A stretch of 64,000 nt of DNA, from NCBI GenBank assembly GCA_963666285.1, contig OY762711.1, one strand, 5' to 3'. Each line of letters begins with the position of its first letter. The first letter of the stretch is position 1. The notes beneath the pieces were generated by a model that saw nothing but the letters and a program-made list of their open reading frames with translations, did no database searches and was not told the origin of the DNA. The DNA is from Sedimentisphaerales bacterium (lineage in GTDB: Bacteria > Planctomycetota > Phycisphaerae > Sedimentisphaerales > SM23-30). Below are positions 44,181 through 64,000 of the stretch, piece by piece. The position numbers and the translations under genes were made by a program.

Positions 44181-44318
44181 CTCACTAAGCCTTTCTCAAA
44201 AAAAAGTTAATAATACCTCTGGTTAAAATACGGAAACATTCCTTTGCTTAACATATGATAATGCAGTATGCAAAAAATAAGACTTATCGCATAAACACAA
44301 ACAATGATTTCATTAGTG

Positions 44319-44346
44319 ATATGCGACTAAAAGTGAGAGTGTGCCA
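44319..44346 (-). promoter_or_regulatory. Putative ECF-sigma promoter upstream of the LamG/PKD gene
   Basis: Minus strand TGGCAC-N16-GCATAT; the same motif and spacing recur upstream of the ECF sigma gene. Confidence 0.65.
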
Positions 44347-44480
44347 CAATTATTATATTTTTACCACAATGTGAATATTAGACAACCAAAGTTCAGATAC
44401 AGTCAACTCCTGCACTTCATTTTATTCTCAGTTAACCACAACACTGTGCAGAACAATCGGCAACGTCCAATAACCATAAT

Positions 44481-46220: not shown

Positions 46221-46229
46221 TACTCACCA

Positions 46230-46769: not shown

Positions 46770-46953
46770 AACTAATCCTTTACGAATCGGAAGAAGTTAT
46801 AATATATTATATATTGCATAAAATGATTCGAATTTAGCAGATAAGCAAAAAATATTACTGCAATAATCAAATACATCTACTCCGCACCATGAAATTTCAG
46901 GACGGCAATGCGATGCACTTAAGCTTTCGTATCATTCTGGCATTTCATTATTT

Positions 46954-46981
46954 ATATGCTTGATCAATGCAAAATGTGCCA
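46954..46981 (-). promoter_or_regulatory. Putative autoregulatory ECF promoter
   Basis: Minus strand TGGCAC-N16-GCATAT, identical boxes and spacing to 44319-44346. Confidence 0.65.
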
Positions 46982-47113
46982 ATAAAAAAATAATGAATAA
47001 ATTCCCCAATAGAACGCTCTACAGCAACTAAAATATAAATAATTGCAAAAAAAAGACTTACCACCATTACCCTTAAGCCGCAAATACAATTATTTCATTA
47101 TCTATAATAAAAA

Positions 47114-50100
47114 TTATTTTATACTTAGCCACCCTTGAGCAAATTCAGTAAGATCATTAAAATCTATACCACCGCTGCGGTCGATATCGGCCCCATCACA
47201 CCTGAACCAGCTGGCTGAACAATCCGAATTAAGCCAGTTCGCAGCAAGATAACTCATATCTGCAATATCTACCTTGCAATCGCCATCAAAATCGACATTT
47301 GATCCACTGGTTGTAAATGACCAGACAGGTCCGGAGATATAATCACCACAATCATTACTGACATCTACTTTCCAGTAATATTGCATATCAGTCTCAAGAA
47401 CTCCAGGATCAAATATCTTAAACCTGTACCCTTCTGCGGCCAGGTTTACAGGTGGATTAACTGTATCCAGGTAGATATCATAGCTCAAATCAGAAATACC
47501 AAGCCTGACAGCATTGGCAATCAGCCTGGCATAATTATCATCATATGAATAAAAATCCCAACCCAGCAATATTGCCATACCGTGTCCCATATAGTTGGAA
47601 ACAGCAACAGGTTTGCCCTGATAACTAATCAGTATCTCATTTTCTGTTGAATCATAAGCTACAGTACCAATACTACTTACAAAGGATTGATCCATATTTT
47701 CTGTCAATAAATTATCCGAAGCCTTCTCAATTTCCATGCCACCAATAATTGCAGGCTGGTCGGCCAGAACCTGCATCATCCCAGCTGAGTTCATTAACTC
47801 ATAAGCACCCCAGAAATAATCACATGCGATTACTATTCCACCTCGCTCGACAAATTCATTAAGTATTTCTGACCAGCTTTCGCCAAGTGCAGAAGCTACA
47901 GAAACAATTGTATTTTGCTGCTCAGGTATAATGAATACCTGATTGGATTCTAATAACTGCCCAAGTAAGATCGGATCTTCCTCATCTGTCAGTGTTACGG
48001 AAAAATCTGTAAAATACTGTGCAACAGCATTTAATGTATTTTCAACCTCACCTCCAACAGTATTGTTGGCATACTTAACAAACATAAGTACGTTAACAGT
48101 AGCGTCCGGAATATCGATAAATGCCTTTGTTGGTAATGCACTAACAGTTGGTATGCCCTTCTCAGATTCGCAGGTAAGTTTTTTATCCAGAATACTTTGC
48201 TGCAACTCAACAGAACGAGTTTCACTATATGCCAGCGAAGATTTCGTTTCAACAACCGGAACATCCCACATCAGCGGCAGGTTAACCGGGCGGCACACGC
48301 TCTGATCTTCCGGCATAACCGGCTCAGGCTCCAGAATTTCTTCACAACTATGGATAAGAATATCAACTGTTGCTGTATTGGAGACCGTCATCATGTCAGA
48401 GGTGGAATTATAGCAATACCACTGGAATTGATCTGAAGATAGAGCATCTCGATCAGCAGAATACAGTAAGATATTGTCATTACCCAAACCATAAGGAACT
48501 GTATCTATCAAAGTCTGTCCAACATATAAATCACCATATTCAGGTAAAGATGAAATAATGTATTCATCTGCAAATTCAGCTTCCAGCAACACTGCCGCAG
48601 ACTGGCCGGCCCACACATCAATTGTGCTGTCAAGTGCGATCGGATTATTCGCTATACAAGATGAACTGCTGCTAAAGTCAGTTTCAACAAAGGATGATGG
48701 TATGCCCTGACCTTCAGAGAAACCGACACCAACCAACTCAGAATTGCCATCAACATCCAGCCAGTGAATTTTTATTACACCGTTAAAAAACAGTTCCGTT
48801 TGAAAAGTGTAATCGTTATTATCCCAGTCCCATACTTGATTAAAAGTAATAACAACCCTGTCATCCAACTGGTTGTAATAAACTTCGCCACCAAAATCCG
48901 GGTTAAGGTCAGCGTAGAACATGGAAATCCTGGGAACTGCGAAATGTTCAGAATAAGAAAAGGCCGGAACAGTACTACCACTTCCAAAAGTAATGTTACC
49001 ATTAGCACTTACATAAAAATATGAATAACCAGTTCCATAGTGTAATACCTGTTTACTATCACTAAGAACAATTTCCTGATAAATATCATCATTATTACCA
49101 GAGTAATTTAATATCCTGGTTCCCGCATTGGGGTCATTTGGCAGATCAGTCAGAGAATCAATACAAACGGAATAGCCTCCTTCAGAATCATCCGGAGTAA
49201 AAGTAGCACTCAAACCTGAAAGATCTGATTCACCTGCTAAAAACGATTCGGTAATATAATCTACGGGAGGGAGAACCTCTATTGTAATAGAAGCAATATT
49301 AGAGCTACTATCACCATCGTTAGCATACCAATTGAAATAATCAATACCTTCAACGTAATCATCTATTTGATAAGTTAAGATGTTATTAAAACCTAACGAA
49401 TATGGTACAGTAGTAATTTCTACTTCACCATCGTAGAGTTTACCAATAACCGGCAATTCTGTGATAACATATTCCAGCTCCTGCGGAGTACCATCATCAT
49501 AAGCACTTAGAATAATACTTTGTGACATTACCTGGTTAACAGTTAAATAGATATCAAGAGCAATAGGAGCAATTGGACCTACCTGCTGACATTGCTGATA
49601 TCTATTCAAGTTACTTTCCAGAAATACTTCAGGAATTACACCATTGGACAGTCCAACCAGCCCATCACCAGCTTCTATATTTATCCAGGTTATCTTTATA
49701 ACCCCACTAAAAAACAGCAGCAGCTGAAAACTGTTTACATTGCCAGTCTGGCTACCACTGCTATTTAATTCACCGATATCTTCATATGTTACTACCAGCT
49801 TTTCATCATCAATTAAATAGCTGATTCTAGTAACACCTGATATTGGACAGAGATCATCAAAAAATGCCGAAATTCTTGGCATATTAAAATGTGAGGAAAC
49901 AGATTCAGTAAACTCGGTATCAGCAACAAATGTCAGGTAACCATTTGATCCTACATAAATTGCATTATACAGCTGCCCAAAAAACGGGAAATTATGATCA
50001 TTCAACAATATCTCACGGGCATCATCGTCATTAAGAGATATCTCAGTAGAACCGGATGGATCAACTTCAAAATCAACTGTATCCCGGACACAGGCCAGAT

Positions 50101-51793
50101 AAAAACTGTTAGCATTACCGGGGGTAAATACAATAGTTTTACCGTTAAGGTCAAAGCTGTTATCTCCAATGCCGGTAAAGGTTTCAGTTAAATAATCAGT
50201 ATATCCAAGGGCCATCAGAATTGTGATATGTCTTACAAGATTGTTACTATCTATAATTTCAATATTTGCAGTATATATACCATCACTCATCGAAGCTGTT
50301 GTTTCAGGATTTATACTGACAGTAATATCCTCAGAATCCCCGGCAACCAAAGTTCCTGATACCGGACTGACAGAAAGCCATGAAACCGGGACAGAGGCCT
50401 GCCAGGAAAGCTCCTCTGTTGTTTCGTTCGCAAAGACATATTCAACATTAGATTGCGAAAATGGGCCACCGGCCTGACCAAAGAAGATATAATCATCTAC
50501 CGGGCTAATATCCAGCCCAACCGGAGACTCCTGAATGATTTTTTCACAGAATGTGTACAGATCATAATAATTCCAGTACGAGCCATATCTTAAAGACGAA
50601 CTCCGGCAGCCGCTTATCCAGCTGTCAGATGCAATGGTTTCATAATAAGCAAGAAAATCTTCCCAACTTGTAGCATCTAAAAACTGCATATTGCTAGAGT
50701 TATAATCAGTTTCCGGACCACCGGAAGGGAAATTAACAGATAAACCATGCGCTCCCTGATAGGAAGCACCATGCATTTCTGCAATAGTAATATTACTCAA
50801 AGCCGTTTCGACATTTGAAGCATCCAGCAGGCATAATTCCGGATTGCTCATACCATTAGCAATAAGACTGTCAGAAAAATCATTTACCGCGGTTAATAGC
50901 GTATCAACGCCTGAAAGATCAAAAGCAGCCAAAGTTTCACCAGTTAAATATGACTGATAATAACGGTTTACAATCACAGAACCTAATTCAGGTGTGGTGA
51001 TAAAGGGATTAGTTTGTAAATCTTCGAAGATAGTGTCATAGGGCCAACCATCAGCGGGTATTTCAGCTGGAGAACCGATAAAGTAATCAACCACATCTTT
51101 GTATTCAGAAATCACTTCAACCATAGCCATGAGACACGCATCCATGCCTAAGACATCGATATTTATAAGTTCTTCTGTTTTAAGCTCTTCCAGAACTACC
51201 CTGATCTCTGCCAGAGATAATTCATCCTGACTGGTAGAATCTAGACAAATAGCTTTGGCAGGGTCTTCCTCAATCTTGGGTAAACCCAGCCCTCGCGATA
51301 AACTGTAGGCTGCAGCCTGACTTACATAGTAATCGGCCCAGCCGTTACCATGGTTCCATAGAACAAGAGCGGTTCTGGTTGACGGGAAACTGGCAGCACC
51401 CCAGGAGATAAAATCTTTCAGATTTTGCGGGTCGCCCATATTTATTTCGCCGAGATCCTCACCCCATGAGCTGCCGGGGGTATCGCCGAATTGCACATAC
51501 CCCCTGCGGGTAGTAGTCCAATTGTCATATGAGTAGCTGTAACTACCTATCCTATCAAGCATTACCACAATATTTATATTGGTATCACTGCCAATAGAAG
51601 ACATTTCGATAAAATCCAAGAGTGCATATTCTTCAAGGTCATTGTCGCCATCGACATAGATAAGGAAAGTCCATTCTTTCAAAGGTGCCGGGTTGGTTGG
51701 TGAATATTGCGCATATATATGCCCAGATATGCAGAGCAACAATATCATCACCCAGAAAGTATTGTTAATAAGAGATTTACAGGCTGTTCTCAT
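47114..51793 (-). CDS. Large secreted clostripain-family (C11) cysteine peptidase with BACON/Ig-like, two NIDO-like, GATase-like and dockerin-like domains
   Basis: WTFLIY.DGDNDLE, EINMGDP, LWNHGNGW (catalytic His), MDACLMA (catalytic Cys); two FPFFG/YV.SNG..TF...PRIS.F..DL units; C-terminal dockerin-like pair. Confidence 0.85.
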   Translation of the reverse strand: MRTACKSLINNTFWVMILLLCISGHIYAQYSPTNPAPLKEWTFLIYVDGDNDLEEYALLDFIEMSSIGSDTNINIVVMLDRIGSYSYSYDNWTTTRRGYVQFGDTPGSSWGEDLGEINMGDPQNLKDFISWGAASFPSTRTALVLWNHGNGWADYYVSQAAAYSLSRGLGLPKIEEDPAKAICLDSTSQDELSLAEIRVVLEELKTEELINIDVLGMDACLMAMVEVISEYKDVVDYFIGSPAEIPADGWPYDTIFEDLQTNPFITTPELGSVIVNRYYQSYLTGETLAAFDLSGVDTLLTAVNDFSDSLIANGMSNPELCLLDASNVETALSNITIAEMHGASYQGAHGLSVNFPSGGPETDYNSSNMQFLDATSWEDFLAYYETIASDSWISGCRSSSLRYGSYWNYYDLYTFCEKIIQESPVGLDISPVDDYIFFGQAGGPFSQSNVEYVFANETTEELSWQASVPVSWLSVSPVSGTLVAGDSEDITVSINPETTASMSDGIYTANIEIIDSNNLVRHITILMALGYTDYLTETFTGIGDNSFDLNGKTIVFTPGNANSFYLACVRDTVDFEVDPSGSTEISLNDDDAREILLNDHNFPFFGQLYNAIYVGSNGYLTFVADTEFTESVSSHFNMPRISAFFDDLCPISGVTRISYLIDDEKLVVTYEDIGELNSSGSQTGNVNSFQLLLFFSGVIKITWINIEAGDGLVGLSNGVIPEVFLESNLNRYQQCQQVGPIAPIALDIYLTVNQVMSQSIILSAYDDGTPQELEYVITELPVIGKLYDGEVEITTVPYSLGFNNILTYQIDDYVEGIDYFNWYANDGDSSSNIASITIEVLPPVDYITESFLAGESDLSGLSATFTPDDSEGGYSVCIDSLTDLPNDPNAGTRILNYSGNNDDIYQEIVLSDSKQVLHYGTGYSYFYVSANGNITFGSGSTVPAFSYSEHFAVPRISMFYADLNPDFGGEVYYNQLDDRVVITFNQVWDWDNNDYTFQTELFFNGVIKIHWLDVDGNSELVGVGFSEGQGIPSSFVETDFSSSSSCIANNPIALDSTIDVWAGQSAAVLLEAEFADEYIISSLPEYGDLYVGQTLIDTVPYGLGNDNILLYSADRDALSSDQFQWYCYNSTSDMMTVSNTATVDILIHSCEEILEPEPVMPEDQSVCRPVNLPLMWDVPVVETKSSLAYSETRSVELQQSILDKKLTCESEKGIPTVSALPTKAFIDIPDATVNVLMFVKYANNTVGGEVENTLNAVAQYFTDFSVTLTDEEDPILLGQLLESNQVFIIPEQQNTIVSVASALGESWSEILNEFVERGGIVIACDYFWGAYELMNSAGMMQVLADQPAIIGGMEIEKASDNLLTENMDQSFVSSIGTVAYDSTENEILISYQGKPVAVSNYMGHGMAILLGWDFYSYDDNYARLIANAVRLGISDLSYDIYLDTVNPPVNLAAEGYRFKIFDPGVLETDMQYYWKVDVSNDCGDYISGPVWSFTTSGSNVDFDGDCKVDIADMSYLAANWLNSDCSASWFRCDGADIDRSGGIDFNDLTEFAQGWLSIK

Positions 51794-52159
51794 AATTATC
51801 CGCCACGAGCGAGTAAAAATCTGCGCTCGTATCTTTGCTATATTGATTTTACAGTAATTGCCGGCAACAAGTCAACAATAGTTATGCACACTTAAATCCT
51901 GGTCACAAAGTAACCAATTACTGCCTTAATTATTTAATTACATATACTTATAATTTTATTACATAATATAAGCGTAAAGTTAACAGGCTTAGTTTTTATC
52001 GGGTAAACTATTGGTGCATTTTAGCTTACAACATATATCTACAGCGATATTATAGTCCGGCGAAATAAATTGTATTAGTTATAACGATTATAACTCTATT
52101 GATGAAAGAGCGTTGCAAACCATACAATCGTAACAATCAAATTTATTTTGATAATTTAT

Positions 52160-52201
52160 TTGCAAGTTCGACAAATGTCGTATATATTCTAAACATGTAG
52201 A
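52160..52201 (+). promoter_or_regulatory. blaI-like promoter with overlapping BlaI/CopY-type operator palindromes
   Basis: TTGCAA (52160-52165), 17 nt, TATATT (52183-52188); CGACA-AA-TGTCG lies in the spacer and CTAAA-CA-TGTAG just downstream, both resembling the TACA-NN-TGTA BlaI/CopY box. Confidence 0.65.
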
Positions 52202-52327
52202 ATGTGTGTTTGAGTGAAGAGTATAAATTGAATATTTAAGAGTTATGGGACCCGTCTGCAGCGGGACAATTTATAATTATAATATATTTATTTACAAATA
52301 CTTATAATCATTAAACGGAAAGATAAT

Positions 52328-52723
52328 ATGACAAAACCAACTGAAGAAAAACAAGGCAAATATGAGCTAACCGAGGCGGAATGGTCTATTATGCGGCATA
52401 TCTGGGATAACGGTGCCAGTACTGCGGGTATGGTGCAGGAGGCATTGGAAAAGAGTAAAGGCTGGGCGTACAGTACAGTAAAGACAACGATGGACCGTAT
52501 GGTAAAGAAAAATTTACTATTTACCGAGCGTATCCGCAACCTGCAATTGTTTAAGGCGTGTATCAGCCGGGAGCAGGCACAAAAAGGAGAGTTTCAAAAG
52601 ATGCTCTCACGAGCGTTTAACGGTGCTTTAACGCCAATGATGCAGTTTCTTCTGGAGAATGAAGAGATATCGAAGAACGAACTGGATGAGTTAAGGCAGA
52701 TGATAGAAGATAAGAAAAGTTAA
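52328..52723 (+). CDS. BlaI/MecI/CopY family transcriptional repressor
   Basis: LTEAEWSIMRHIW, WAYSTVKTTMDRMVKK, F.G...P.M.FL, EL.ELRQMI. Confidence 0.93.
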   Translation: MTKPTEEKQGKYELTEAEWSIMRHIWDNGASTAGMVQEALEKSKGWAYSTVKTTMDRMVKKNLLFTERIRNLQLFKACISREQAQKGEFQKMLSRAFNGALTPMMQFLLENEEISKNELDELRQMIEDKKS

Positions 52724-52746
52724 ATAAATAAGTGAAGAATTAAGAT

Positions 52747-52780
52747 GTCGCTCCGCCTGAGGCGGATTTCATTCTGCGAC
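52747..52780. repeat. Small palindromic (REP-like) hairpin between blaI and the giant ORF
   Basis: GTCGC-TCCGCC-TGA-GGCGGA-...-GCGAC; related cores at 2494-2508 and 63674-63688. Confidence 0.5.
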
Positions 52781-52901
52781 CGTGTATTAATTCGCCTAGT
52801 AACGCCACTTACAAATTATTTGTGTAACGGAAATGAGTTTTCAACGTCTGGATATATAGACATAAAGCTATAAAATTAAGATACTTAAGAAAGGTCGGAA
52901 C

Positions 52902-55900
52902 ATGGACATTACAACCATGATCAATGAATTGGGCCAATGGTTCTGTAAAGAAAACTTTGCTATGCTGGTTCAGTCGAGCGTGTTAATAGCAGTACTAATG
53001 CTGCTGGATCTAGTTATCAAGAAACGAGTTAGAGCGGTTATTCGATATTGCATCTGGATGCTGGTACTGGTGAAGCTGGTACTGCCGACGAGCATATCTA
53101 TGCCTACCGGTTTAGGGTACTGGATAAGCGACCAATGGTCGATGGAAGCCAGAACAGTCGAACAGCCGAACAGTCGAGAAGAAATTTCAAAAGAAGGGAC
53201 ACGGGAGGATAGCGAAGCAATTGCGGCGGCGGACAGTATGGTCACAGATGGTGTACGGGTGGTACGCAACGGCGCGAAGCGTAACGGCGAAGAGTTAACT
53301 GAAACGGCGGATAGCGGCGGTATAGCGGCTAACAGCGGAAAGGTATCGAATGGTAACGGCGATGCAGCGGCGGAAGACCAAATAAGTGGAGTGACAGGCT
53401 TACGGGATATTAATATTTTGCAAAATGACGTAAGTGCAGAAAAAAAATCAGCGGGCCTACCAGATGGGATGAAGTCTGAAGTAAGAAGTCTGAAGTCTGA
53501 AAATGAAGAAATTAAGAATTCAGAATTTAAAAATCAGGAAGAAGAAGAAAAGGGATATGGGATAAGGGATAAGGGATTAGGGAATGTGCTCGCTAACGCT
53601 CGGTTAATTAATAATGAAGAAGCAACCACGAAAAAGGGGACGGAGAATCTGAAGTCTGAAGTAGGAAGTCTGAAGTCTGAAAATGAAGAAAAACAGTTAG
53701 CGGCCGGGAATCAAATAACCTGGCAGGGCTGGATATTTATGGGCTGGTCGGTTGGTGTGCTGGTGCTGGTGAGTGTGCTGGTGCAGCGGTTCTGGTTTGT
53801 TAAGAGCCTGGTAGCGCAGAGTGAGCCGGTGAAGGCCGAGCGTATAAGGCAATTGATGGCTGAATGCCGGGAGCTGGTCAGAGTAAGCAGTAAAGTAGAG
53901 CTAAGGCTGACACGTAATATGATGAGTCCGGCGGCGTGCGGATTGTGGAAGCCTGTGATACTTATGCCGGAAGAGCTGCTGGAGAAATTGAGTAAGGACC
54001 AGCTGAAAGCGGTACTGCTGCATGAGCTGTCGCATATCAAGCGAGGCGACCTGTGGGTGAACCTGGCACAGACACTTTTGCAGATAGTGTACTTCTTTAA
54101 CCCCCTGCTCTGGATCGCAAATGCGATAATTCGCAATGTGCGAGAGAAAGCGGTAGATGAGTTGGTGATCGCGAAGCTAGAAGGTGATGCCGGGATGTAC
54201 AGCAGTACACTGGTTGATATAGCCGAGATCGCATTTTCCCGACCGCATTTCAGTTTGAGGCTGGTCGGGGTAGTCGAGTCCAAGAAGGCGTTGAAAGACC
54301 GTATAAAGCATATCTTATCGAGGAAGTTTCCCAAATCAGCCAGATTGGGTGCGGCGGGTATTGTGAGTATAATTGTACTGGCGGCGGTGCTGCTGCCGAT
54401 GGCGAGCGGGCAAGGTGCACAGGATAAATATATCTTTGAATATGGAGATGGCCATAAAATCGAGCTGGTCGGAATATGCAGCTGGCCGCCAAACGGCAAC
54501 AAATGGCATAGTCCGGATGGTATGCCGCTGGATATAAAGATCCAGACCTCTGACAGCAGCGGTATAGAATCGGATGAGCCCGGCTATCAGCTGGCGTTCA
54601 GGTCTGACAAGGGAGCAGCGTTCAAGTTAGAGTATATCAAAGGCTGCAGAGCGAAAAGTGAGCTTGGCGTATTTGACAAAAATGAAATAACAGCTTTTAA
54701 GGCTCATATCAATGGCAATTTAAATAAAACCAATATTAGAATCGCGGTACCGGATGGCAACTGGGAAACGTCATGTTCGAGCAGATCGATAACAGGTACG
54801 AGCGGCCATAAAGTAGATGGTAAGCCGTTAATATTCGGCGGGATGCAGTCCGGCGATAATATGATTATTACCTGCAGTGATAATGTAGGCTATAAAAAAG
54901 CGAGCAGGATAGTTGTAATTGACAAAAGCGGAAAGATAGTTGACGGAAAATCAATCGCGGATACCGGTTTTAATAATGTTCGACAGCGGACAATAGAATA
55001 TAAGAACATTGGACCTGCCGATATTGATAAGATCGAATTTATGACATGTTCGTATAAGACACATACGTTTAAGAATGTGGTTTTGAAATCGATACCCAAG
55101 AATCTTCAGTTCAGAATCGAGGGAACTGTAACTGATGCAGATACGGGCGATCCGATTGCCGGTGCAAAGGTAGGCGATGTTTCAGGCTATAACAGCGGCA
55201 GGTTTTCTACTACGACAGACGAAAACGGTAAATACGAATACCTGACATATTATGAAGAGCATAATATTGTTGCGAAAGCAGCCGGTTATGAAACTAAGCA
55301 GGAGATACTGCTGACGAAGCTGATCGGGAAAGAAGATAAAAAGACTATTGATTTTAATCTGAAGGATGAAAGAAAACAGGGATCAGGGATCGGGGATAAG
55401 GGATTAGGGAAAGTGCTCGCTAACGCTCGGTTAATTAATAATGAAGAAGCAACCACGAAAAAGGGGACGGAGAATCTGAAGTCTGAAGTAGGAAGTCTGA
55501 AGTCTGAAAGTGAAGAAATTAAGAATTCAGAATTAAAAATTAAGGAAGAAGAAGAAGAAGAAGAAGAAGAAAAGGGATATGGGATAAGGGATAAGGGATT
55601 AGGGAATGTGCTCGCTGACGCTCGGTTAATTAATAATGAAGAAGCAACCACGAAAAAGGGAATGGACAATCTGAAGTCTGAAGTAGGAAGTCTGAAGTCT
55701 GAAAAAGAATATATTAAGAAAGAAGAAAATAACCCAAAAGAAAGTGAAGAGCTAAGAACTAAGTATACTTTGTCAGAATTATTAAAAAATATACAAAATG
55801 CTGATAATGTTAGAAGTCAGCTACTATCGAATTCACAAGGTAAAGCATTGATCAATATCACATTAAGTAAAATGGCTACCAACGGGAAAGGTAAGCTACA

Positions 55901-58900
55901 GGATGAGTCTGTCAAGAAGTTTGATACAGACGACTATAGCTGCGTTATTGACAAAAACGGTAATTTCACCATAGACTGGTACCAGAGCGTTGTCAAAAGA
56001 AGGTTTGATTTACATTCTGTCGATCAACTAAACAATACAACACAGGCTAAGCCACTATGGTCAAATGTTGACGCACGCACTTTTATTGACCCTAATAAAT
56101 GGATAGTTTATGATGCGATAAAAGATGAATGTTCTGCAAAAAACGCAAAAGCACGAGCTAAGCATGCAACAAATCCGCTATCGATAATATTTGATTTTGA
56201 TATTGAACGACTTTACAGCGTAAACCTTCATTCTCAAATCCGAAACATTGTCCTCTTGTATGCAAATAATGGAACTAAGCCTAAAATAGCTGCTGAGACC
56301 GTTAACGGTATACCCTGTATTAAGATTTCAATCTTTAAAGAAGCTGAAAATGATAATGGCAACATAATGAATAAGCTAATTGAGTTCTGGGTTTCACCGG
56401 AGATGGGACATTCGCTGATTAAATATAGATTTTCTATGGGCAAATGGTCCCAAGGAATAGACCTCCCCCTTTGGCAAAGTTATGATGCAAGCTATATAGA
56501 GTCCAAAGAAAATCATGGAGTGTGGCTGCTTAATAAGCTGGAAATGTCACATAAAGATATTACGATGGGCAATATTGAAACTCTTCGGGTAGAGTTTGTT
56601 GAGACAGAGATTGATACTGCTATTTCTGGTGAAGTATTTACTACCAAGGGTTTGGGCGTAACAGATAAGACTAAGTTTGTTGATAAATTGATGGAAGAGA
56701 AAGAAAGTCAGAGATATGGCGAAGAAATTAAGAAAGAAGAATTAAAAATTAAGAAAGAAGAAGAAGAAAAGGGATATGGGAAGGAAAACATAAAGGATGA
56801 AGTATCAAGTATCAAGTATAAAAAGAATTCAAACACGAAAGACGGAAAAGATGCGGAAATGGGGACGGACCCCATTAATTCATTGGATATTAAACAAGAA
56901 TGGAAAACAATTGCAGAATCATATAAAGTGAATTCCAATATTCCGGTGCAAGTTGCTTCAGTGGCAACGGATTACGGACAGGTAGTCTTTGGAAATGCGT
57001 ACAGTAAAGATGATGGAGCCTGGATATCAACAACTGACGATATTGACAGAAATATTTGTGAGGTACGCATTGTCGCAATCGATATCGATGGTAATATATT
57101 ACTTCAAAATGGCGGAGGAAGCAGCACTGTAAACAAAACAAATACACTGCAATGTCGATTTGACACTGAATTGAGCAAAGTCAGTCTTTTTGAAATTCAG
57201 ATCAGGAATAATGAAACCACAAAAGATGCAGAAGCTGAAATTAATATAGAAACGATTAAGGGATGGGTAATAGATTATTATAAAGATTATGACCTGGAGC
57301 ATCCGAGTGATCGAATATTGAAAAGAAGATTCCTCGAATGGAATGAACCGGCAGTTGACAGCAGCAACCGACATCTGATAAATTGCACGGTTGAAGAGAC
57401 AAGCCGGAAAAGCGGAGATGATATTATAGTTATCAAGGGCGAGGACTTTACCTTTAACCCGGACGGCAGTTGTGCATCGAAGAAGAAAACAAACACAAAT
57501 TCACTATTTGATTATATCGCGAGCGATATTGTCGGTAGATACATAAGAAACAATATAGATGATGGCTATAGCTGGAAAAGTTATGTTGAGAAAGGAAATT
57601 TAGGAACAGATGAAAATGGTAACTATACATATAGGATTAAATATGAGTTGAGATATAATGATAGCAGCTATTCTTATACATATTTCACGAAAACATTTAC
57701 GGTGAATCCGGATTACGAGATAATTGCGATTGAAGAACTGCCGAAGGAGCTGACCAGTTATGATAAACGCAGGATTGCGAACATGGTGAGTGAATACAGA
57801 GAGAAGATGAGGAAAAGGGATATTGCCGGGATACTTGAGATGCTGGTGATTGAGGATGATAAACATCTGGAGATGGTTAAGCAATATCTTGAAGAAACTT
57901 TATACGGGAAATGGTCAGATTGGAATTTTTATTCAGAAGAGAATAATAAGTTCGTTGACGTTTATGAAGATGGTAATAATAACTTTGAAGCCTGGACACT
58001 GACTAAATCTTTGGATGATAAATGGACTATAGGAGTGATACCGGTAAGGTATAAGAATGGGGAATTTAAGCTTGACAACTTTAACAAGGAAACAATAGAA
58101 AAGTGTAAAATAATTAAGACAACAGATATAGACAGTATGGGCAAGATATTGCAGCAGAAGAATGCCGAGGGATGGGTTCATGCCGAAGGAAAAGAACTGA
58201 AGAAGCTTTATCTGGATAAGATAACTCATGAACAGAGAAGCCTGGCGACATTAAGCGTTGCTGATAAGTACAAATTAGAGATGATGAGATTTTGTACAAG
58301 AGAAGAAATTGAGAAACGGTTGAACGAACTTGAGAGTATGACACCGGAAGAGCTGAAGGAGAAAATGATATCGGAAGCCCTACTACGACCAGCTCAGAAC
58401 AAAGCGGCAAGAGGAGAGAAGTCTGAAGTAAGAAGTCTGAAGGCTGAAAGTGAAGAAATTAAGAATTCAGAATTAAAAATTAAGGAAGAAGAAGAAAAGG
58501 GATATGGGGTGGAAAACATAAAGGATGAAGTATCAAGTATCAAGTATAAAAAGAATTCAAACACGAAAGACGGAAAAGATGCGGAAATGGGGACGGACCC
58601 CTTTAATTCAACCTATCTGCAAAATTCCGGCAGTATATGGGATCTGCACAAGACAGACAGGATGCAGGATATCTTTATGCTTGACCTGGAAACGGGGCTG
58701 AAAGCGAAGCTTAAAGATATCGCTGATATCGAACAGCTGAAAAGGACACAAGAATCATTCAACGCAGGTGATATCTATTATTGCTATGATCAACAGCCAT
58801 GGCTGGGGATAGTTCAAGAAGCACATTTCGCGAATGGAAATATAGAATTTGACCCGGCTTTGAAAAGGACAGTAATCAGCGGGTTAAACAATATTATTGT

Positions 58901-61900
58901 TATAACTAAAGATAACAGGACGTTCGATATAAACTTCAGCTATTCAGATGAGAATGGCTGTATGATAAAATACCGAGAGATAGCGGCAGGTGAACCGATG
59001 CCGAAGATTAAGTTCAAGGCGCAGGTTAGCACAGAAATTCGGTTTGCCGCTATTGACAATAAGGCCGTGCCAGGTTATGACAATTCAGACTGCAGCATAG
59101 TCAGTAAAGATGAATATGAAGAGATTATCGAAAAAACTAAAAAGGATAGTAAAGGCAGGTTAATTACAGCACCTAACGTAACATTATTTGACGGGGAAAA
59201 AACGGACATTTCGTTATCGACTGAAATATTTCGCCAACTAGGATATGATAATATGGATATCCGGTTTACTCCTTATGTAATGGATAATAATATAGTATCT
59301 CTTGCGGTCAAATTCAATCGGGAAATAGACAGCGGCAGACGGGCCGAAATACAAAAATATGTCAGGTTTGAAGCTGGTCAATATGGCGTACTGCCTCTAA
59401 AGAATATTATCGGGATTGATTACCTGATGATTGTCAATTGTCAGATTATTGAGCCTGACGATGGCAGCAACGGTAATCATGGCAGCTGGGAAAAAGATAA
59501 AAAGGAGAAAAGTGATCCCCTATTCGATAGAGAGTACCTGGGCGAGTGGAAGATGCCAGAGCTAGATATTAAAGAGGGAAAGAAAATTAAAAGCTTAAGG
59601 CTGAACATAAAAGATAACGGTACTATGACGATCAGATATATCGATATGAATGGAGATACAATATTACTTGATGCAGATTATGATGTTCAGGATGGCATGG
59701 TCATAGCCGGGAACGGGGATAATATCTACGTAAGATGCTATTTCAAAGATGATATATTTTCAGCTGAGATGCCTGAATTTGATATGACAGTACTGTTGGA
59801 ACAAGTGATGCCGGAAGCTAATTTAAAGACTGACGGCGAAGAAATTAAGAATTCAGAATTAAAAATTGAGGAAAATATAAAGGATGAAGTATCAAGTATA
59901 AAGTATAAAAAGAATTCAAATACGAAAGATGGAAAAGATGCGGAAATGGGGACGGACCCCATTAATTCACTGGATATTAAACAAGGATGGAAAACAATTG
60001 CAGAATCATATAAAGTGAATTCCAATATTCCGGTGCAAGTTGCTTCAGTGGCAACGGATTACGGACAGGTAGTCTTTGGAAATGCGTACAGTAAAGATGA
60101 TGGAGCCTGGATATCAACAACTGACGATATTGACAGAAATATTTTTGAGGTACGCATTGTCGCAATCGATATCGATGGCAATATATTACTTCAAAATGGC
60201 GGAGGAAGCAGCACTGTAAACAAAACAAATACACTGCAATGTCGATTTGACACTGAATTGAGCAAAGTCAGTCTTTTTGAAATTCAGATCAGGAATAACG
60301 TAGAAATGGGGACGGACCCCATTAATTCAACGTTCAAAACAGTTGTACTTAAAAATTCAATCCAGGCGATCAATTTAAGTAATAATCAGAAAACATATGA
60401 TTTTTATGTACTGGATATGGCAAGCGGAAATGTGAAAGAGTACGAAAATGTACAAGATTTCAATCATTTGACAAATATCCTGAATAGCGTCGGCAAAGGA
60501 GATATGGCGTTTGTATTTACTAAAGACAGATGTATGCCGGTAATCAACTGGGTTCGGAATGCTCGGCCTGTTGAAAAAGCCGATGAAAGACAGAGCCACT
60601 ACTTCTACAGTGCGAAGTGGTATCCGGACGATAATATAATTACCAATGAAGGCAAACGATATTATGTATATTTCAAGGATTGCGATGAAAACGGGTGTGA
60701 GATATATTACAGGGAGATCATGCCGGGAGAATCGCTGCCGAAAAATGTCGAGAGAGAATATGTCAATGAAAATAACGAGATAGTATCAATAGAGATGGAA
60801 CTGTTCAGTCTGAATGGAACTGAATACAGTATAGACACAGAAAGGATAATTAAAAACGGCGACGAGCTGGATGAGACCCAGATAAGTTTTCTGCGGAAGA
60901 TCTCAGAAAGTGGAAAAGTGAATTTCTGGGAAAAGCTGCCAAAGATAAAAGCGTTTAAGACAGAAAAGGTAGATATGAGCTCACTAGGGGCAATATTGCC
61001 AGCCGACAAATTCCAAATAGACAAGCTGACCGTCATCCCAAATGATATAAACGGCGGAAGTTTATGCCTGGATATTGATCTTGCCGGTTCGTTTCATGCC
61101 GTCGACTATACAGGCGATAACAAAACAGATGCGATAATGAGTTCGTTCACACGCAAGGTTACGAATATTATGCCTGAAAACAAGGCGGCATTGCTGGAGC
61201 TGTGCGGAGTAAATGGCATTCATTATTTCATGCTGGTTAAAATGCAAAATGCAGGCAGTGATCTGAAGGATGAAAATGAAGAAATTAAGAATTCAGAATT
61301 AAAAATTGAGGAAGAAGAAGAAGAAGAAAAGGGATATGGGATAAGGGATAAGGGATTAGGGAATGTGCTCGCTGACGCTCGGTTAATTAATAATGAAGAA
61401 GCAACCACGAAAAAGGGGACGGACCCCATTAATTCCTTTACCCCCTCCTGGATTGGACTGCCAGAAGGGTGGGACAGAGATAAGGCCTGGAAAGAGATAA
61501 CCAGCTACCTGGAAAATAATATAAAAAGAGATTTGCCGGAAAGTAATATAAGTTATTTCAATGATGACATAAAGCATGGACCGGTTGAAATATCGTACCA
61601 TACACAAAAATATCAAGTTGAAAGTCCGGTATCTAAGGCAAGAATTGATACAGAGAAACAAACAGAAACAGGCCCTCAGCCAGACGGACTGATAATCAGG
61701 ATATATCTAACTGAAAATATTGAACAGATGGTAAGGCCGCAAACTCTGGATAAAACTTTCTGGAAAGTTGATTTCCTGAAAATATATCTGCCTGAACTTA
61801 AATTGTTCCTGATGGCCAACATATCATACGGCAATCAAACCGACCAGACACTTCTCAGTAAATATAGAAATTTAAACGGAATAATGGCTAACATTATCGA

Positions 61901-64000
61901 AAGTACGCAAACCACAAAAATCACAGAAGTGGATAACCAAAGGTACGATACAGTTGATAAAAAATATATGGATAAGATGGCGGGTGAGGTTTTGTTCTGC
62001 GGTGAGTATAAGCATATAAGCCGGAGACGTGAGATAGAGACGCCCAGCACACTGCTTGTAACTCGAGGGGCAGACGGAGAGATAAACGCTTTGGCGTATA
62101 TGCCGTGGATGGGCAGCTATGACATGGCGGTTGGTGATAAAGAAGGTAAGCTGTCGGGCTATTTTACGTGGCGGGCAGAGTCGGAAGGTAAGCCCGGGTT
62201 CGATACGGAGCTGGAGCTGGGTGATGGCAAGGCGGTATTGAACCGGCACGGGATACGTGAAGACAAGGTAAATGTGGAGTTGAGTGTGGCGGAAGGAGCG
62301 AGGTTTAGCCCAAATAGCAGGCCGGACAGCTATTGTGCAGATAATATATTTATGCGCGGGCTGGATATAGCAGTTGAAACGAGTAAGGAATTTGAAGTTT
62401 ACGACTGGGATAACAGCGGCGAGGCGATGGCGAGCTATACGATAGAGGTGTATAATGCCGGGAAAGAAGAGGTTGTGGTGCCGGCGGGCACGTTTGAGGC
62501 GAACCATTATGTGCTGACGCAGACCAGTACCGGAAATACGTGGTATAAGAAACAAAACGGACATATTACCGATTATTGGGTGATGGATGACGGGATAATT
62601 GTGCGGGTGCTTCGACACAGGGAGCCGTATGAAATACAGTTAATGAAAAATGAAAGAATACAGGGATCAGGTTTCAGAGGTCAGGGATCAGGGAAGGTGC
62701 TCGCTGACGCTCGAGCTAATAATACTGTATCTAAAGGGGAATATGAGATATGCGGTACTGTAACAACAGAAATGTCAGAAGGTCGCTGGGAAGAGTTTTT
62801 TGCCAGAATGGATGCCGCCAAGACAGAAAAAGAGCTGAATGATATTGTAACGTCAGAGAGGCAGCCAGGAAAAGAACCAGCGGCAAATGTTGAGGTAAAA
62901 CTAATCGGCCGGTATGGGAATAAACCGTTTGAGCGAATAACATCAACCGATAATAATGGCAATTACTGGTTCAAAGACCTGCCGATCGGCAGTTACAGAA
63001 TATCATGCCAAGATAACATTGTTTATAATCGAACCGGCAGTATAGTGACAATGGTCGGTGAAGGAGATAAACCGATAGAGTTTGTTTTGTCCGGTAAGAA
63101 GAGAGCCGAGATGGATATCGAACTTCGTGATAATAACCTGCTGACTGTAACAGGGAGAGTACTTGATCAAAAAGGCAGGCCAATCACAAATGCTGTTGTA
63201 ACCGGGACAAGTACCCCACTTGAAAATGGCGGGATAGGCGAAACAAGCGAACAAACGAGGATTTTCAGTCCGCAGATAATAACCGGCAAAACTGATGCCG
63301 AGGGCAGGTATCAGCTGGCAGGGTTTGAAGCAGCCCATTATATAAACGTATTTCGCAGTTTGATCAATACGAATAAGGATGCACGCGGACCATATAAATT
63401 CTTTGCTGATATTACGGTACGGGCGGATGGGTATGTGCCGGCTGAGAGGAAAGCGTACAGAGTTCCGCTGGCAGGTGAAGAACAGCTATATCGTGCCAGG
63501 CGGCTGCTGAAAGCATATGAGAAATTGGATACTGATGCCAAAGTGAAGGAAAACCCTGAGCCGGTATGGCCGTTTGCGAAATGTGAAGGTTCAAAGCTGG
63601 TTGGTGTAGATATAGTAATGAAGTCTGAAAGAATAAGTGAAGAACTAAGAACTAAGAGTGAAGAGTTCAGGAATCCCCCTACGGCGGAAGCTAATTTAAA
63701 GACTGACGGCGAAGAAATTAAGAATTCAGAATTAAAAATTAAGAAAGAAGAAAATGCAAATACAGCAGTTGGAAATGATGAGCTAGTCGTTGAAGATGCG
63801 GAAAAAGAGACGGTCAGCATAAATTCCAGTTTAATTTTTTCAGAATCTGCATATGACAAGATGAAAAAAGAGCTGGTTCAGGAGACCGCGGAAAATACAA
63901 AAGAGTCTTCTATCGATCAATTTGTCGGTATCTGGGAAAATCCGGGATTTATCGGTAACGATGAAGGAAGGCCAAAGTACACATACTTACTGATAATATA
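52902..64000 (+). CDS. Giant BlaR1/MecR1-like M56 peptidase with a multi-cassette C-terminal region (>3699 aa, runs off the window; absent from the ORF track)
   Basis: SD AAGAAAGG then ATG 52902: MDITTMINELGQWFC...RVRAVIRYCIWMLVLVKLVLP; SPAACGLWKPVILMP; HELSHIKRGD at 54021; YFFNPLLW; REKAVDE; LKDRIKHIL; final TM helix; later carboxypeptidase-regulatory-like domains. Frame checked by hand at about 10 points to the window end; the track lists no + ORF here, consistent with no stop. Confidence 0.88.
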   Translation, partial: MDITTMINELGQWFCKENFAMLVQSSVLIAVLMLLDLVIKKRVRAVIRYCIWMLVLVKLVLPTSISMPTGLGYWISDQWSMEARTVEQPNSREEISKEGTREDSEAIAAADSMVTDGVRVVRNGAKRNGEELTETADSGGIAANSGKVSNGNGDAAAEDQISGVTGLRDINILQNDVSAEKKSAGLPDGMKSEVRSLKSENEEIKNSEFKNQEEEEKGYGIRDKGLGNVLANARLINNEEATTKKGTENLKSEVGSLKSENEEKQLAAGNQITWQGWIFMGWSVGVLVLVSVLVQRFWFVKSLVAQSEPVKAERIRQLMAECRELVRVSSKVELRLTRNMMSPAACGLWKPVILMPEELLEKLSKDQLKAVLLHELSHIKRGDLWVNLAQTLLQIVYFFNPLLWIANAIIRNVREKAVDELVIAKLEGDAGMYSSTLVDIAEIAFSRPHFSLRLVGVVESKKALKDRIKHILSRKFPKSARLGAAGIVSIIVLAAVLLPMASGQGAQDKYIFEYGDGHKIELVGICSWPPNGNKWHSPDGMPLDIKIQTSDSSGIESDEPGYQLAFRSDKGAAFKLEYIKGCRAKSELGVFDKNEITAFKAHINGNLNKTNIRIAVPDGNWETSCSSRSITGTSGHKVDGKPLIFGGMQSGDNMIITCSDNVGYKKASRIVVIDKSGKIVDGKSIADTGFNNVRQRTIEYKNIGPADIDKIEFMTCSYKTHTFKNVVLKSIPKNLQFRIEGTVTDADTGDPIAGAKVGDVSGYNSGRFSTTTDENGKYEYLTYYEEHNIVAKAAGYETKQEILLTKLIGKEDKKTIDFNLKDERKQGSGIGDKGLGKVLANARLINNEEATTKKGTENLKSEVGSLKSESEEIKNSELKIKEEEEEEEEEKGYGIRDKGLGNVLADARLINNEEATTKKGMDNLKSEVGSLKSEKEYIKKEENNPKESEELRTKYTLSELLKNIQNADNVRSQLLSNSQGKALINITLSKMATNGKGKLQDESVKKFDTDDYSCVIDKNGNFTIDWYQSVVKRRFDLHSVDQLNNTTQAKPLWSNVDARTFIDPNKWIVYDAIKDECSAKNAKARAKHATNPLSIIFDFDIERLYSVNLHSQIRNIVLLYANNGTKPKIAAETVNGIPCIKISIFKEAENDNGNIMNKLIEFWVSPEMGHSLIKYRFSMGKWSQGIDLPLWQSYDASYIESKENHGVWLLNKLEMSHKDITMGNIETLRVEFVETEIDTAISGEVFTTKGLGVTDKTKFVDKLMEEKESQRYGEEIKKEELKIKKEEEEKGYGKENIKDEVSSIKYKKNSNTKDGKDAEMGTDPINSLDIKQEWKTIAESYKVNSNIPVQVASVATDYGQVVFGNAYSKDDGAWISTTDDIDRNICEVRIVAIDIDGNILLQNGGGSSTVNKTNTLQCRFDTELSKVSLFEIQIRNNETTKDAEAEINIETIKGWVIDYYKDYDLEHPSDRILKRRFLEWNEPAVDSSNRHLINCTVEETSRKSGDDIIVIKGEDFTFNPDGSCASKKKTNTNSLFDYIASDIVGRYIRNNIDDGYSWKSYVEKGNLGTDENGNYTYRIKYELRYNDSSYSYTYFTKTFTVNPDYEIIAIEELPKELTSYDKRRIANMVSEYREKMRKRDIAGILEMLVIEDDKHLEMVKQYLEETLYGKWSDWNFYSEENNKFVDVYEDGNNNFEAWTLTKSLDDKWTIGVIPVRYKNGEFKLDNFNKETIEKCKIIKTTDIDSMGKILQQKNAEGWVHAEGKELKKLYLDKITHEQRSLATLSVADKYKLEMMRFCTREEIEKRLNELESMTPEELKEKMISEALLRPAQNKAARGEKSEVRSLKAESEEIKNSELKIKEEEEKGYGVENIKDEVSSIKYKKNSNTKDGKDAEMGTDPFNSTYLQNSGSIWDLHKTDRMQDIFMLDLETGLKAKLKDIADIEQLKRTQESFNAGDIYYCYDQQPWLGIVQEAHFANGNIEFDPALKRTVISGLNNIIVITKDNRTFDINFSYSDENGCMIKYREIAAGEPMPKIKFKAQVSTEIRFAAIDNKAVPGYDNSDCSIVSKDEYEEIIEKTKKDSKGRLITAPNVTLFDGEKTDISLSTEIFRQLGYDNMDIRFTPYVMDNNIVSLAVKFNREIDSGRRAEIQKYVRFEAGQYGVLPLKNIIGIDYLMIVNCQIIEPDDGSNGNHGSWEKDKKEKSDPLFDREYLGEWKMPELDIKEGKKIKSLRLNIKDNGTMTIRYIDMNGDTILLDADYDVQDGMVIAGNGDNIYVRCYFKDDIFSAEMPEFDMTVLLEQVMPEANLKTDGEEIKNSELKIEENIKDEVSSIKYKKNSNTKDGKDAEMGTDPINSLDIKQGWKTIAESYKVNSNIPVQVASVATDYGQVVFGNAYSKDDGAWISTTDDIDRNIFEVRIVAIDIDGNILLQNGGGSSTVNKTNTLQCRFDTELSKVSLFEIQIRNNVEMGTDPINSTFKTVVLKNSIQAINLSNNQKTYDFYVLDMASGNVKEYENVQDFNHLTNILNSVGKGDMAFVFTKDRCMPVINWVRNARPVEKADERQSHYFYSAKWYPDDNIITNEGKRYYVYFKDCDENGCEIYYREIMPGESLPKNVEREYVNENNEIVSIEMELFSLNGTEYSIDTERIIKNGDELDETQISFLRKISESGKVNFWEKLPKIKAFKTEKVDMSSLGAILPADKFQIDKLTVIPNDINGGSLCLDIDLAGSFHAVDYTGDNKTDAIMSSFTRKVTNIMPENKAALLELCGVNGIHYFMLVKMQNAGSDLKDENEEIKNSELKIEEEEEEEKGYGIRDKGLGNVLADARLINNEEATTKKGTDPINSFTPSWIGLPEGWDRDKAWKEITSYLENNIKRDLPESNISYFNDDIKHGPVEISYHTQKYQVESPVSKARIDTEKQTETGPQPDGLIIRIYLTENIEQMVRPQTLDKTFWKVDFLKIYLPELKLFLMANISYGNQTDQTLLSKYRNLNGIMANIIESTQTTKITEVDNQRYDTVDKKYMDKMAGEVLFCGEYKHISRRREIETPSTLLVTRGADGEINALAYMPWMGSYDMAVGDKEGKLSGYFTWRAESEGKPGFDTELELGDGKAVLNRHGIREDKVNVELSVAEGARFSPNSRPDSYCADNIFMRGLDIAVETSKEFEVYDWDNSGEAMASYTIEVYNAGKEEVVVPAGTFEANHYVLTQTSTGNTWYKKQNGHITDYWVMDDGIIVRVLRHREPYEIQLMKNERIQGSGFRGQGSGKVLADARANNTVSKGEYEICGTVTTEMSEGRWEEFFARMDAAKTEKELNDIVTSERQPGKEPAANVEVKLIGRYGNKPFERITSTDNNGNYWFKDLPIGSYRISCQDNIVYNRTGSIVTMVGEGDKPIEFVLSGKKRAEMDIELRDNNLLTVTGRVLDQKGRPITNAVVTGTSTPLENGGIGETSEQTRIFSPQIITGKTDAEGRYQLAGFEAAHYINVFRSLINTNKDARGPYKFFADITVRADGYVPAERKAYRVPLAGEEQLYRARRLLKAYEKLDTDAKVKENPEPVWPFAKCEGSKLVGVDIVMKSERISEELRTKSEEFRNPPTAEANLKTDGEEIKNSELKIKKEENANTAVGNDELVVEDAEKETVSINSSLIFSESAYDKMKKELVQETAENTKESSIDQFVGIWENPGFIGNDEGRPKYTYLLII
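53471..63755 (+). repeat. Dispersed in-frame linker repeats inside the giant ORF (8 blocks plus one isolated palindrome)
   Basis: Blocks at about 53471-53690, 55356-55763, 56718-56882, 58418-58610, 59812-59969, 61261-61436, 62647-62725 and 63620-63755, plus a lone palindrome at 60303-60329. Shared parts: AAGTCTG/AAGAATT/GGGATAA heptamers, (GAA)n, GTGCTCGCTRACGCTCG and GGGGACGGACCCC. Confidence 0.92.
56782..60298 (+). repeat. 430-bp near-identical direct repeat (56782-57211 and 59869-60298)
   Basis: Offset 3087 bp; about 8 substitutions counted by eye; the antisense ORFs 56890..57147 and 59977..60234 are near-identical. Confidence 0.92.

Follow-up and report, generated by a model that had tools for sequence, protein, structure and literature searches.

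In-frame heptamer-repeat linkers at the domain borders of a giant BlaR1-family protease gene from a Sedimentisphaerales bacterium

A 64,000-nucleotide (nt) stretch of DNA from a planctomycete, Sedimentisphaerales bacterium (assembly GCA_963666285.1, contig OY762711.1), contains most of a giant gene of the M56/BlaR1 family. The whole stretch is referred to here as the window; it corresponds to C1:4480001-4544000 of the genome, and positions beyond its end are given as window-equivalents. The giant gene lies on the plus strand, starts at an ATG at 52902, stays open through the rest of the window (52902 to 64000) and continues to a stop codon at window-equivalent 66743, encoding 4,613 amino acids (aa). 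A blaI-type repressor gene (52328 to 52723, plus strand; 131 aa; PF03965 Penicillinase_R, E = 1.1e-30) ends 178 nt upstream on the same strand. A preliminary description of this DNA had proposed that one forward frame running from 52902 past 64000 begins as a membrane peptidase, continues as mostly unrelated cargo segments separated by repeated linkers, and uses those linkers as handles to capture, duplicate and reorder cassettes, like an integron inside a single gene. The frame, the peptidase and the linkers were all borne out, whereas the interpretation was supported only in part: we consider it likely that this is one real BlaR1-family protease gene, partnered with BlaI, in which the linkers act as passive homology tracts that aid in-frame gain and exchange of domains.

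Across the giant gene, its own frame contains only the terminal stop (1 in 4,614 codons), whereas the other two plus-strand frames contain 347 and 503 stops; the gene is therefore a selected open reading frame (ORF) and not a chance one, and no in-frame stop had been overlooked. The frame is intact across all nine junctions, and the cargo segments have no signal peptides or start contexts of their own (judged by eye). Six M56 genes are encoded in the source genome, with open frames of 589 to 4,625 aa.

The N-terminal part of the protein is a transducer module of the BlaR1 type. The Peptidase_M56 domain spans aa 249 to 471 (PF05569, E = 1.1e-46) and carries the motif HELSH at aa 374 (54021 to 54035), where it had originally been noted. 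Based on the Pfam match, the BlaR1 structure 8exs and hydropathy, the module comprising the third transmembrane segment (TM3), the zinc-protease loop and TM4 occupies 53694 to 54431 (plus strand). The sole sequence match of the N-terminal part in the Protein Data Bank was BlaR1 itself (8exs residues 106 to 315 against aa 278 to 488; E = 3e-6). Kyte-Doolittle hydropathy over a 19-aa window, a crude predictor, placed transmembrane segments at aa 21 to 39, 43 to 67, 276 to 304 and 482 to 500 and none after these, with an extra hydrophobic stretch (aa 392 to 410) within the protease loop. The NCBIfam model blaR1_generic scored 142 bits against a cut-off of 400 and was covered only at positions 105 to 332 of 585, which is the transducer half. 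No Pfam match to the penicillin-binding (class D beta-lactamase-like) sensor domain was found in aa 1 to 3699 (E ≤ 0.1) or in the last 913 aa (E ≤ 0.001), and the giant is thus not BlaR1 proper. It is probably a member of the Peptidase_M56 family that works like BlaR1 and, by analogy with that protein, the roughly 4,100 aa after TM4 would be placed outside the membrane, on BlaR1's sensor side. If the analogy extends to signaling, an event at the ectodomain would activate the zinc protease, which would cleave BlaI and derepress the operon. Among the inverted repeats listed upstream of blaI there was no convincing BlaI operator.

All five linker peptides quoted in the preliminary description are present and repeated in the protein, and the linker blocks are 78 to 100% identical among themselves at the DNA level (35 self-BLAST matches, all direct plus/plus). 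Tandem Repeats Finder (TRF) resolved the linkers into 20 period-7 arrays of 2.6 to 7 units each, purine-rich on the sense strand and built from the units GAAGTCT, GGGATAA, AATTAAG, CAGGGAT, AGTATCA and AAGAACT, plus AGTGAAG in linker 8. The arrays are imperfect (74 to 100% matches, with perfect runs of ≤3 units), and the sense strand of the GGGATAA arrays has five GGG tracts separated by 4-nt loops. All linkers are read on the plus strand. Block 1 (53469 to 53693) is inserted in the TM2-TM3 loop, which is ∼188 aa long in the giant versus ∼72 aa in a same-genus orthologue, and consists of GAAGTCT, AATTAAG and GGGATAA arrays, an anchor and a second GAAGTCT array (TRF). Block 2 (55368 to 55736) is two tandem copies of a composite heptamer linker with a 195-nt period, and block 3 (56718 to 56882) holds an AATTAAG-like array, an AGTATCA array and a piece encoding MGTDPINS. 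Blocks 4 (58416 to 58613), 5 (59811 to 59969) and 6 (61260 to 61436) were delimited by self-BLAST and TRF, and a short MGTDPINS linker lies at 60300 to 60329. Linker 7 (62649 to 62729) is a CAGGGAT array plus anchor (TRF), and linker 8 (63632 to 63761) is a complete element of a kind otherwise found at the 3' ends of genes (63632 to 63713; AGTGAAG/AACTAAG heptamers, anchor and A/T-rich tail) followed by an AATTAAG array, all in frame.

To place the linkers in their genomic context, period-7 arrays with a score of 36 or more were located on contig C1. On a crude gene map, 280 of the 333 arrays are intergenic. The 53 arrays inside crude ORFs include the 20 in the giant gene and two in a second M56 gene, with most of the others in ORFs of ∼100 to 200 aa or at gene ends. 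The linker unit families recur outside the giant gene (GAAGTCT in 8 arrays, AATTAAG in 8 and GGGATAA in 22), and a search allowing up to 2 mismatches gave, for the AGTGAAG/AACTAAG motif of linker 8, 41 matches elsewhere, 40 of them intergenic. A profile built from these 41 other copies matched linker 8 with nhmmer (E = 7.6e-16) over model positions 7 to 90 of 110, including the anchor and tail, which are not repetitive. The CAGGGAT/GGGATAA-plus-anchor module, which encodes the peptide 'GLGNVLANARLIN', behaves similarly: all five copies in the gene match an internal segment of a dispersed genomic repeat (E = 7.6e-9 to 3.6e-4), the best match being linker 7. Taken together, the array distribution and the profile matches indicate that the linkers belong to the intergenic repeat repertoire of the genome and are not sites private to the giant gene. 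A genome-wide search for linker repeats had been suggested as a check on the original proposal; the array survey did find another M56 gene with two arrays, but the arrays are mostly intergenic. The linkers are in-frame heptamer cassettes of the intergenic type, presumably copied from intergenic DNA.

Several features of the repeats themselves were recorded. The 3'-end element is composed of heptamers, a short anchor hairpin and an A/T-rich tail and looks like part of a terminator region; 29 of the 41 copies lie after a gene end, 18 of the 41 within 45 nt of a stop codon, and the element often starts just after a small hairpin. The dispersed repeat is ∼520 nt long, G-rich, C-poor and apparently non-coding, with 20 copies that agree with their consensus at a mean of ∼0.9; one example lies at C1 ∼712930-713450, and the repeat is followed by variable heptamer arrays. 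Rfam returned no match for seven intergenic repeat loci (E ≤ 1) or for three copies of the ∼520-nt repeat (E ≤ 0.1). Contig C1 also carries four ORFs larger than the giant gene (2757710-2791225, 3162210-3193796, 160204-177546 and 1876718-1892002; 11,171, 10,528, 5,780 and 5,094 aa), and none of these contains a period-7 array at the threshold used. A genome-wide count of 13-mers proved too noisy and was not used.

The second M56 gene (C1:6078597-6082385) encodes 1,262 aa with three CarboxypepD_reg stretches, and has in-frame heptamer arrays in its TM2-TM3 loop and after TM4. Identity to the giant is 42 to 62% for its linker peptides, compared with 27% for its protease domain. Heptamer-type peptides were also found, at the protein level only, in two orthologues from related planctomycetes (P0020 and P0007; 53 to 55% identical over the N-terminal part) at the sites used in the giant, namely the TM2-TM3 loop and the border after the first ectodomain cassette or after CarboxypepD_reg; P0007 holds the exact peptides SEELRTKSEE and IKNSELKIK. 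The matching sites in orthologues and the linker likeness of the second M56 gene together suggest that the junction sites are old and tolerant, and that their repeat content is turned over or exchanged. Read-through fusion of separate genes was considered as a general origin of the linkers and was rejected in view of the position of block 1 inside a loop of the conserved N-terminal module and of the lack of signal peptides in the cargo (by eye).

The arrays of the giant gene are open in its frame in all 20 cases. On the purine strand of the intergenic arrays, by comparison, a mean of 0.59 of 3 frames is open and any open frame exists in 126/280, values that fall to 0.30 of 3 frames and 12/40 for the intergenic arrays of the linker unit families. 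The pyrimidine-rich strand of the intergenic arrays has a mean of 2.31 of 3 frames open, versus the stop-dense purine-rich strand. Repeats perfectly matching their consensus would put in-frame stops in 14 of the 20 arrays of the giant gene (17 stops), and each of these is removed by one substitution. Would-be stops account for 17/57 substitutions, where 8% would be expected (binomial P = 2e-6), although this test overstates independence because the arrays are copies of about four families; a second caveat is that one intergenic GAAGTCT array has the variant unit seen in the gene. On these grounds the linker arrays appear to have been kept open by selection and to be translated as flexible spacers rich in E, K, S and G.

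Between the linkers, the ectodomain is a succession of cargo segments, all on the plus strand. A membrane-proximal module (54432 to 55367), delimited by alignment, an AlphaFold2 (AF2) model and Pfam and colinear in relatives, consists of a tandem beta-sandwich (cassette 1, to 55115) and a CarboxypepD_reg domain (55116 to 55367). The AF2 model of cassette 1 (aa 504 to 738) is confident (mean predicted local distance difference test [pLDDT] score of 84.5) and tandem all-beta; Foldseek returned only weak Ig-like matches (best E = 8.5e-4, TM-score 0.26). A tandem beta-sandwich of ∼230 aa (window 54411 to 55115), for which there is no Pfam model, stands directly after TM4 in most giant M56 proteins and occurs twice in two of them, and it is probably a common membrane-proximal module of the giant M56 family. 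Pfam confirmed the two CarboxypepD_reg regions that had been predicted by eye, at aa 739 to 824 and as further stretches within the region of aa 3277 to 3579.

Cargo 2 (55737 to 56717) is AT-rich and has a weak paralogue at C1:5502907-5503635. It is followed by the first copy of a duplicated cassette (56883 to 57212; 110 aa; 98.1% nucleotide identity with the region of copy 2), cargo 3 (57213 to 58415, containing aa 1615 to 1824), cargo 4 (58614 to 59810, in which protein comparisons place a secretin-like stretch at ∼59000 to 59470), the second copy of the duplicated cassette (59970 to 60299, defined by self-comparison and ending at the short MGTDPINS linker) and cargo 5 (60330 to 61259). Cargo 6 (61437 to 62648) divides into 6a (to 61901), a member of a widespread alpha/beta family, and 6b, which is conserved in P0020. 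A CarboxypepD_reg-type block (62730 to 63631) is conserved in the relatives G017 (35%) and P0020 (50%), and the start of cargo 7 (63762 to 64000) reaches the end of the window, outside which lie a second domain of the type found at aa 1615 to 1824 and a conserved C-terminal domain of HEAT-type repeats (∼aa 4051 to 4613; block limits vary by orthologue). The cargo had been described as mostly unrelated and different in composition. The first statement holds in general with three exceptions: the duplicated cassette (56883 to 57212 versus 59970 to 60299; 98% aa identity), aa 1615 to 1824 versus 3890 to 4098 (31%) and aa 1906 to 2035 versus 2483 to 2614 (25 to 29%), the latter two being old paralogies within the protein. 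The contrast in composition is also real (GC content of 0.363 at 55737 to 56717 versus 0.491 in cargo 6b, 61902 to 62648), but both values lie inside the 5 to 95% range of genes in this genome (0.353 to 0.500). Two domain assignments fared less well. A DUF3108-like domain containing VPAGTF, expected at ∼62000 to 62640, had no Pfam match to DUF3108 at E ≤ 0.1. The secretin-like segment at ∼59160 had no match to PF00263 in the giant itself and was recovered only indirectly, as aa 2034 to 2189 align to residues 1318 to 1495 of P0020, which hold a weak Secretin match (residues 1364 to 1470; E = 8e-9).

HMMER with aa 1905 to 3000 retrieved 48 proteins at E ≤ 0.001; among 18 of these homologues examined with Pfam, 10 carry M56, alongside ankyrin, LRR, PQQ, HEAT, thioredoxin, SecDF-P1 or secretin domains, and the cargo segments thus belong to families of domains found repeatedly among giant M56 proteins. 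Cargo 6a represents a family of ∼150 aa (window 61404 to 61901) with six invariant columns (three Gly, two Pro and one Trp) and no Pfam model, which occurs both as small stand-alone proteins (about 100 to 350 aa) and as parts of giant M56 proteins. Its model (aa 2835 to 3000) is a confident alpha/beta fold (pLDDT of 86.7), and no convincing relative of solved structure emerged (Foldseek best E = 0.08; VIA-align best Z = 6.2, in the noise range). Word-indexed protein searches found only the giant itself among proteins of 2,034 to 6,474 aa and, with aa 823 to 3699 as the query, no match among shorter proteins; both are weak evidence, as such searches were probably swamped by low-complexity words. 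The same kind of search with cassette copy 2 plus cargo 5 gave no match among proteins of 754 to 2,150 aa, again weak evidence, and this pair had no relative in collections of genome contigs or metagenome contigs.

Giant modular M56 proteins (1,300 to 3,650 aa) are common in related planctomycetes and have conserved ends and an unrelated middle. Eight M56 ORFs (1,319 to 3,442 aa) from eight stretches of seven relatives all have HExxH at aa 256 to 280 of their stop-to-stop frames, and carry CarboxypepD_reg, HEAT, SecDF_P1, LamG, Clp_N and lipocalin-like domains. The giant is colinear with G017 at aa 6 to 74, 269 to 733, 3265 to 3573 and 4051 to 4609, and with P0020 (3,236 aa) at aa 1 to 850 (53.5%), 3019 to 3574 (50%) and 4131 to 4613 (66%), with an unrelated middle.

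The immediate neighborhood was scanned for genes that might act on the linkers. No recombinase or transposase was detected by Pfam in the 7 ORFs (≥120 aa) of 36232 to 51793, within a scanned region of 36000 to 52900, or in 2 ORFs within 3.3 kb downstream. The Pfam content of these nine ORFs comprises Lon, FGE-sulfatase, radical SAM, LamG, FecR, an ECF sigma factor, C11 peptidase and GH2, with one ORF of unknown content. Divergent from blaI is the gene for a 1,559-aa clostripain-family (C11) peptidase with a BACON-like domain (47114 to 51793, minus strand), a possible member of the regulon, and beyond it lies an extracytoplasmic function (ECF) sigma factor/FecR anti-sigma pair (44481 to 46769, minus strand).

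Evidence for recombination at the linkers comes from within the gene, from an orthologue and from a sequencing run of another organism. Within the gene, 56782 to 57211 and 59869 to 60298 are 98.1% identical over 430 nt; the duplicate consists of linker plus cassette, and both of its ends are in linker sequence. In P0020, a 32-aa heptamer-type linker joins the CarboxypepD_reg block to the C-terminal domain; in its place the giant has linker 8 and ∼510 aa of extra cargo. Within the giant, the linkers that occupy orthologue-shared sites are 89 to 93% identical in nucleotides, while P0020's own two are much less alike (peptides, by eye); such likeness within one gene suggests gene conversion or recent re-spread. 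In a run from another organism and another study (X5), an 8,554-nt contig has a 1,345-nt match, with 51 differences (96% identity), to cassette copy 2 plus cargo 5. Linker-like matches flank it, and none of the other listed pieces of that contig matches the giant gene at ≥85%. The blaI gene and M56 start of the X5 organism are ∼85% identical to those of the source organism and lie on a separate 33-kb contig. Contig joints with short sides (22 to 43 nt) in repeats were not counted as rearrangements.

These observations are best accounted for, in our view, by the reading given at the outset. Near-identical linkers in the same orientation and frame would serve as passive homology tracts, and ordinary recombination, gene conversion or template switching between them could duplicate, insert or exchange whole domains without breaking frame. 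Gain of domains in this way may have helped the gene to grow, with no need for a dedicated enzyme. The original notion of recombination handles would then be retained in a passive sense, in that structural changes coincide with linkers. As for the cassettes said to be captured, duplicated and reordered, the analysis yielded one linker-bounded duplication and no case of reordering. An extension of this reading is that the heptamer cassettes are portable, stop-free homology junctions through which giant sensor genes, including those of different lineages, could duplicate and trade whole folded domains. Intergenic repeats would then stand in for introns in a bacterial form of exon shuffling. Exchange between lineages is hinted at by the one cassette that is 96% identical where the conserved start of the gene is ∼85% identical, but we regard the extension as doubtful.

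A number of results weigh against linker-mediated domain gain. Only one clear recent event, the duplicate, was found inside the gene. The eight M56 ORFs of relatives contain one period-7 array in total, compared with 20 in the giant gene; they are equally modular with almost no arrays, and the repeats are thus not needed for modularity. Two runs (X1 and X3) are identical to the reference over the matched parts, and a sediment metagenome from a third study (X4) contains, at 97 to 100%, pieces of five parts of the ectodomain, three of them middle cargo (cassette 1, CarboxypepD_reg, cargo 3, cargo 4 and cargo 6b). This fits a stable gene. The evidence from X5 consists of short-read contigs, which could in principle be misjoined at repeats. 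Almost all linkers interrupt the short-read contigs of the source organism, which leaves the intact frame and the colinearity with orthologues as the only support for the order of the cassettes. Finally, the gene map of C1 is a crude longest-ORF map (85% coding) and not the product of a gene caller, and the direction of copying, from intergenic space into the gene, is read from numbers and context.

The modularity of relatives and the stability across X1, X3 and X4 are also what would be expected of a static multidomain protein, in which heptamer cassettes are merely tolerated insertions with no role in domain gain or loss, and in which the duplicate and indels are ordinary events that happen to end in low-complexity DNA. 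We consider this unlikely, although it deserves more weight than the alternatives below: both ends of the duplicate, the P0020 indel and the X5 junctions all fall at linkers, and the linkers at shared sites are far more alike within the giant than are P0020's own two.

The coincidence of the duplicate, the P0020 indel and the X5 mosaic with linkers, and the unrelated middles of orthologous proteins, would suit a dedicated integron-like system in which the linkers are recombination handles that capture, duplicate and reorder cassettes within one gene, as first proposed. Such a system is very unlikely here. No recombinase or transposase was present among the scanned ORFs upstream and downstream, the putative handles are a genome-wide class of intergenic repeat, the self-matches are direct in 35 of 35 cases and no palindromic attC-like sites were seen. 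In addition, several cargo pieces are present in the independent sediment metagenome, and no close paralogue of the cargo was found elsewhere in the source genome, which therefore holds no silent cassette store.

A further possibility is phase-variable truncation, whereby slippage of one unit at a linker shifts the frame and yields a nested series of receptors, each truncated at a domain border. When 19 arrays were lengthened or shortened by 7 nt, a stop followed after 1 to 54 codons, and after ≤10 codons in 34 of the 38 slips; moreover, heptanucleotide repeats in the coding region of neuO reportedly drive phase variation. In comparison with a contingency locus of the neuO type, the tracts of the giant gene are short (2.6 to 7 units) and imperfect, which disfavors slippage, and the only length change listed for X1 and X3 is a 6-nt GAAGAA insertion in one X1 contig, with no 7-nt indel, although contigs drop rare variants. 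Phase variation is accordingly improbable, marginally more so than a dedicated shuffling system. The idea that the gene is an artefact (misassembly across repeats or adjacent genes misread as one) gains something from the breaks in the source contigs, which leave the order unconfirmed, but it is the least credible of all. The frame has a single stop over 4,614 codons, compared with 347 and 503 in the other two, and is kept over nine junctions; both ends and two internal blocks follow the order seen in orthologues of 3,236 and 3,442 aa; and the cargo, by eye, lacks signal peptides and start contexts.

Planctomycetes encode numerous giant modular proteins of the BlaR1 type, which are unstudied, and the way in which bacteria build mosaic proteins of several thousand residues is an open question. 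The giant gene ties that question to the function and spread of intergenic heptamer repeats: cassettes seen after stop codons in this genome are here translated at almost all domain borders, and the few structural changes that can be dated terminate within such cassettes. If the cassettes are causal, they offer a simple and testable route to domain accretion and exchange without dedicated enzymes; if they are not, the gene still shows clearly that non-coding repeat DNA can be taken up into a protein. It further cautions against reading repeated linkers in a giant gene as a sign of dedicated shuffling machinery.

Comparison with known systems sets the giant gene apart from each of them in part. 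With integrons it shares only the idea of cassettes between repeated junctions: there is no integrase found, there are no attC-type palindromes and no logic of a promoter plus an array, and the cassettes are parts of one polypeptide. Rickettsia palindromic elements are dispersed non-coding repeats that are also inserted in frame in protein genes, and the likeness lies in a dispersed non-coding repeat being translated inside genes at tolerant sites. Unlike those elements, the linkers of the giant are direct heptamer arrays plus an anchor, non-palindromic, many per gene, placed at domain borders and without a known mobility mechanism. Cyanobacterial short tandemly repeated repetitive (STRR) sequences are one class of heptamer repeat in bacteria. 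The linkers share with bacterial heptamer repeats tandem, strand-asymmetric period-7 units, few per array, of unit families that are also intergenic in this genome, and GGGATAA arrays with five GGG tracts. Intergenic simple-sequence repeats of this length include GGGAATC in Xanthomonas and GGGGA(T/C)T in Nostoc, and the pattern of GGG-tract heptamers has been linked to G-quadruplexes (Rehm et al. 2015, PMC4692102). TAACTGA heptamer repeats are described in Beggiatoaceae and other bacteria (MacGregor 2015, PMC4679880). Relative to these heptamer repeats, the giant gene differs in that whole cassettes are read in frame, with nine linker blocks in one gene. Searches of open-access texts turned up no account of heptamer arrays that serve as linkers in proteins, and none of giant BlaR1-type proteins of planctomycetes. 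With BlaR1/MecR1 and BlaI/MecI (structures 8exp to 8ext), the locus shares an adjacent BlaI-family repressor, an HExxH M56 module between TM3 and TM4, four transmembrane segments and a sensor side after TM4, but the giant has no penicillin-binding domain and its ectodomain is ∼4,100 aa compared with ∼250 aa in BlaR1. With the giant modular Peptidase_M56 proteins of other planctomycetes, which are present in databases and apparently unstudied, it has in common the N-terminal module, the beta-sandwich, CarboxypepD_reg, a C-terminal HEAT-type domain and a variable middle; it is the longest of those compared, and the only one packed with arrays among the nine read as DNA.

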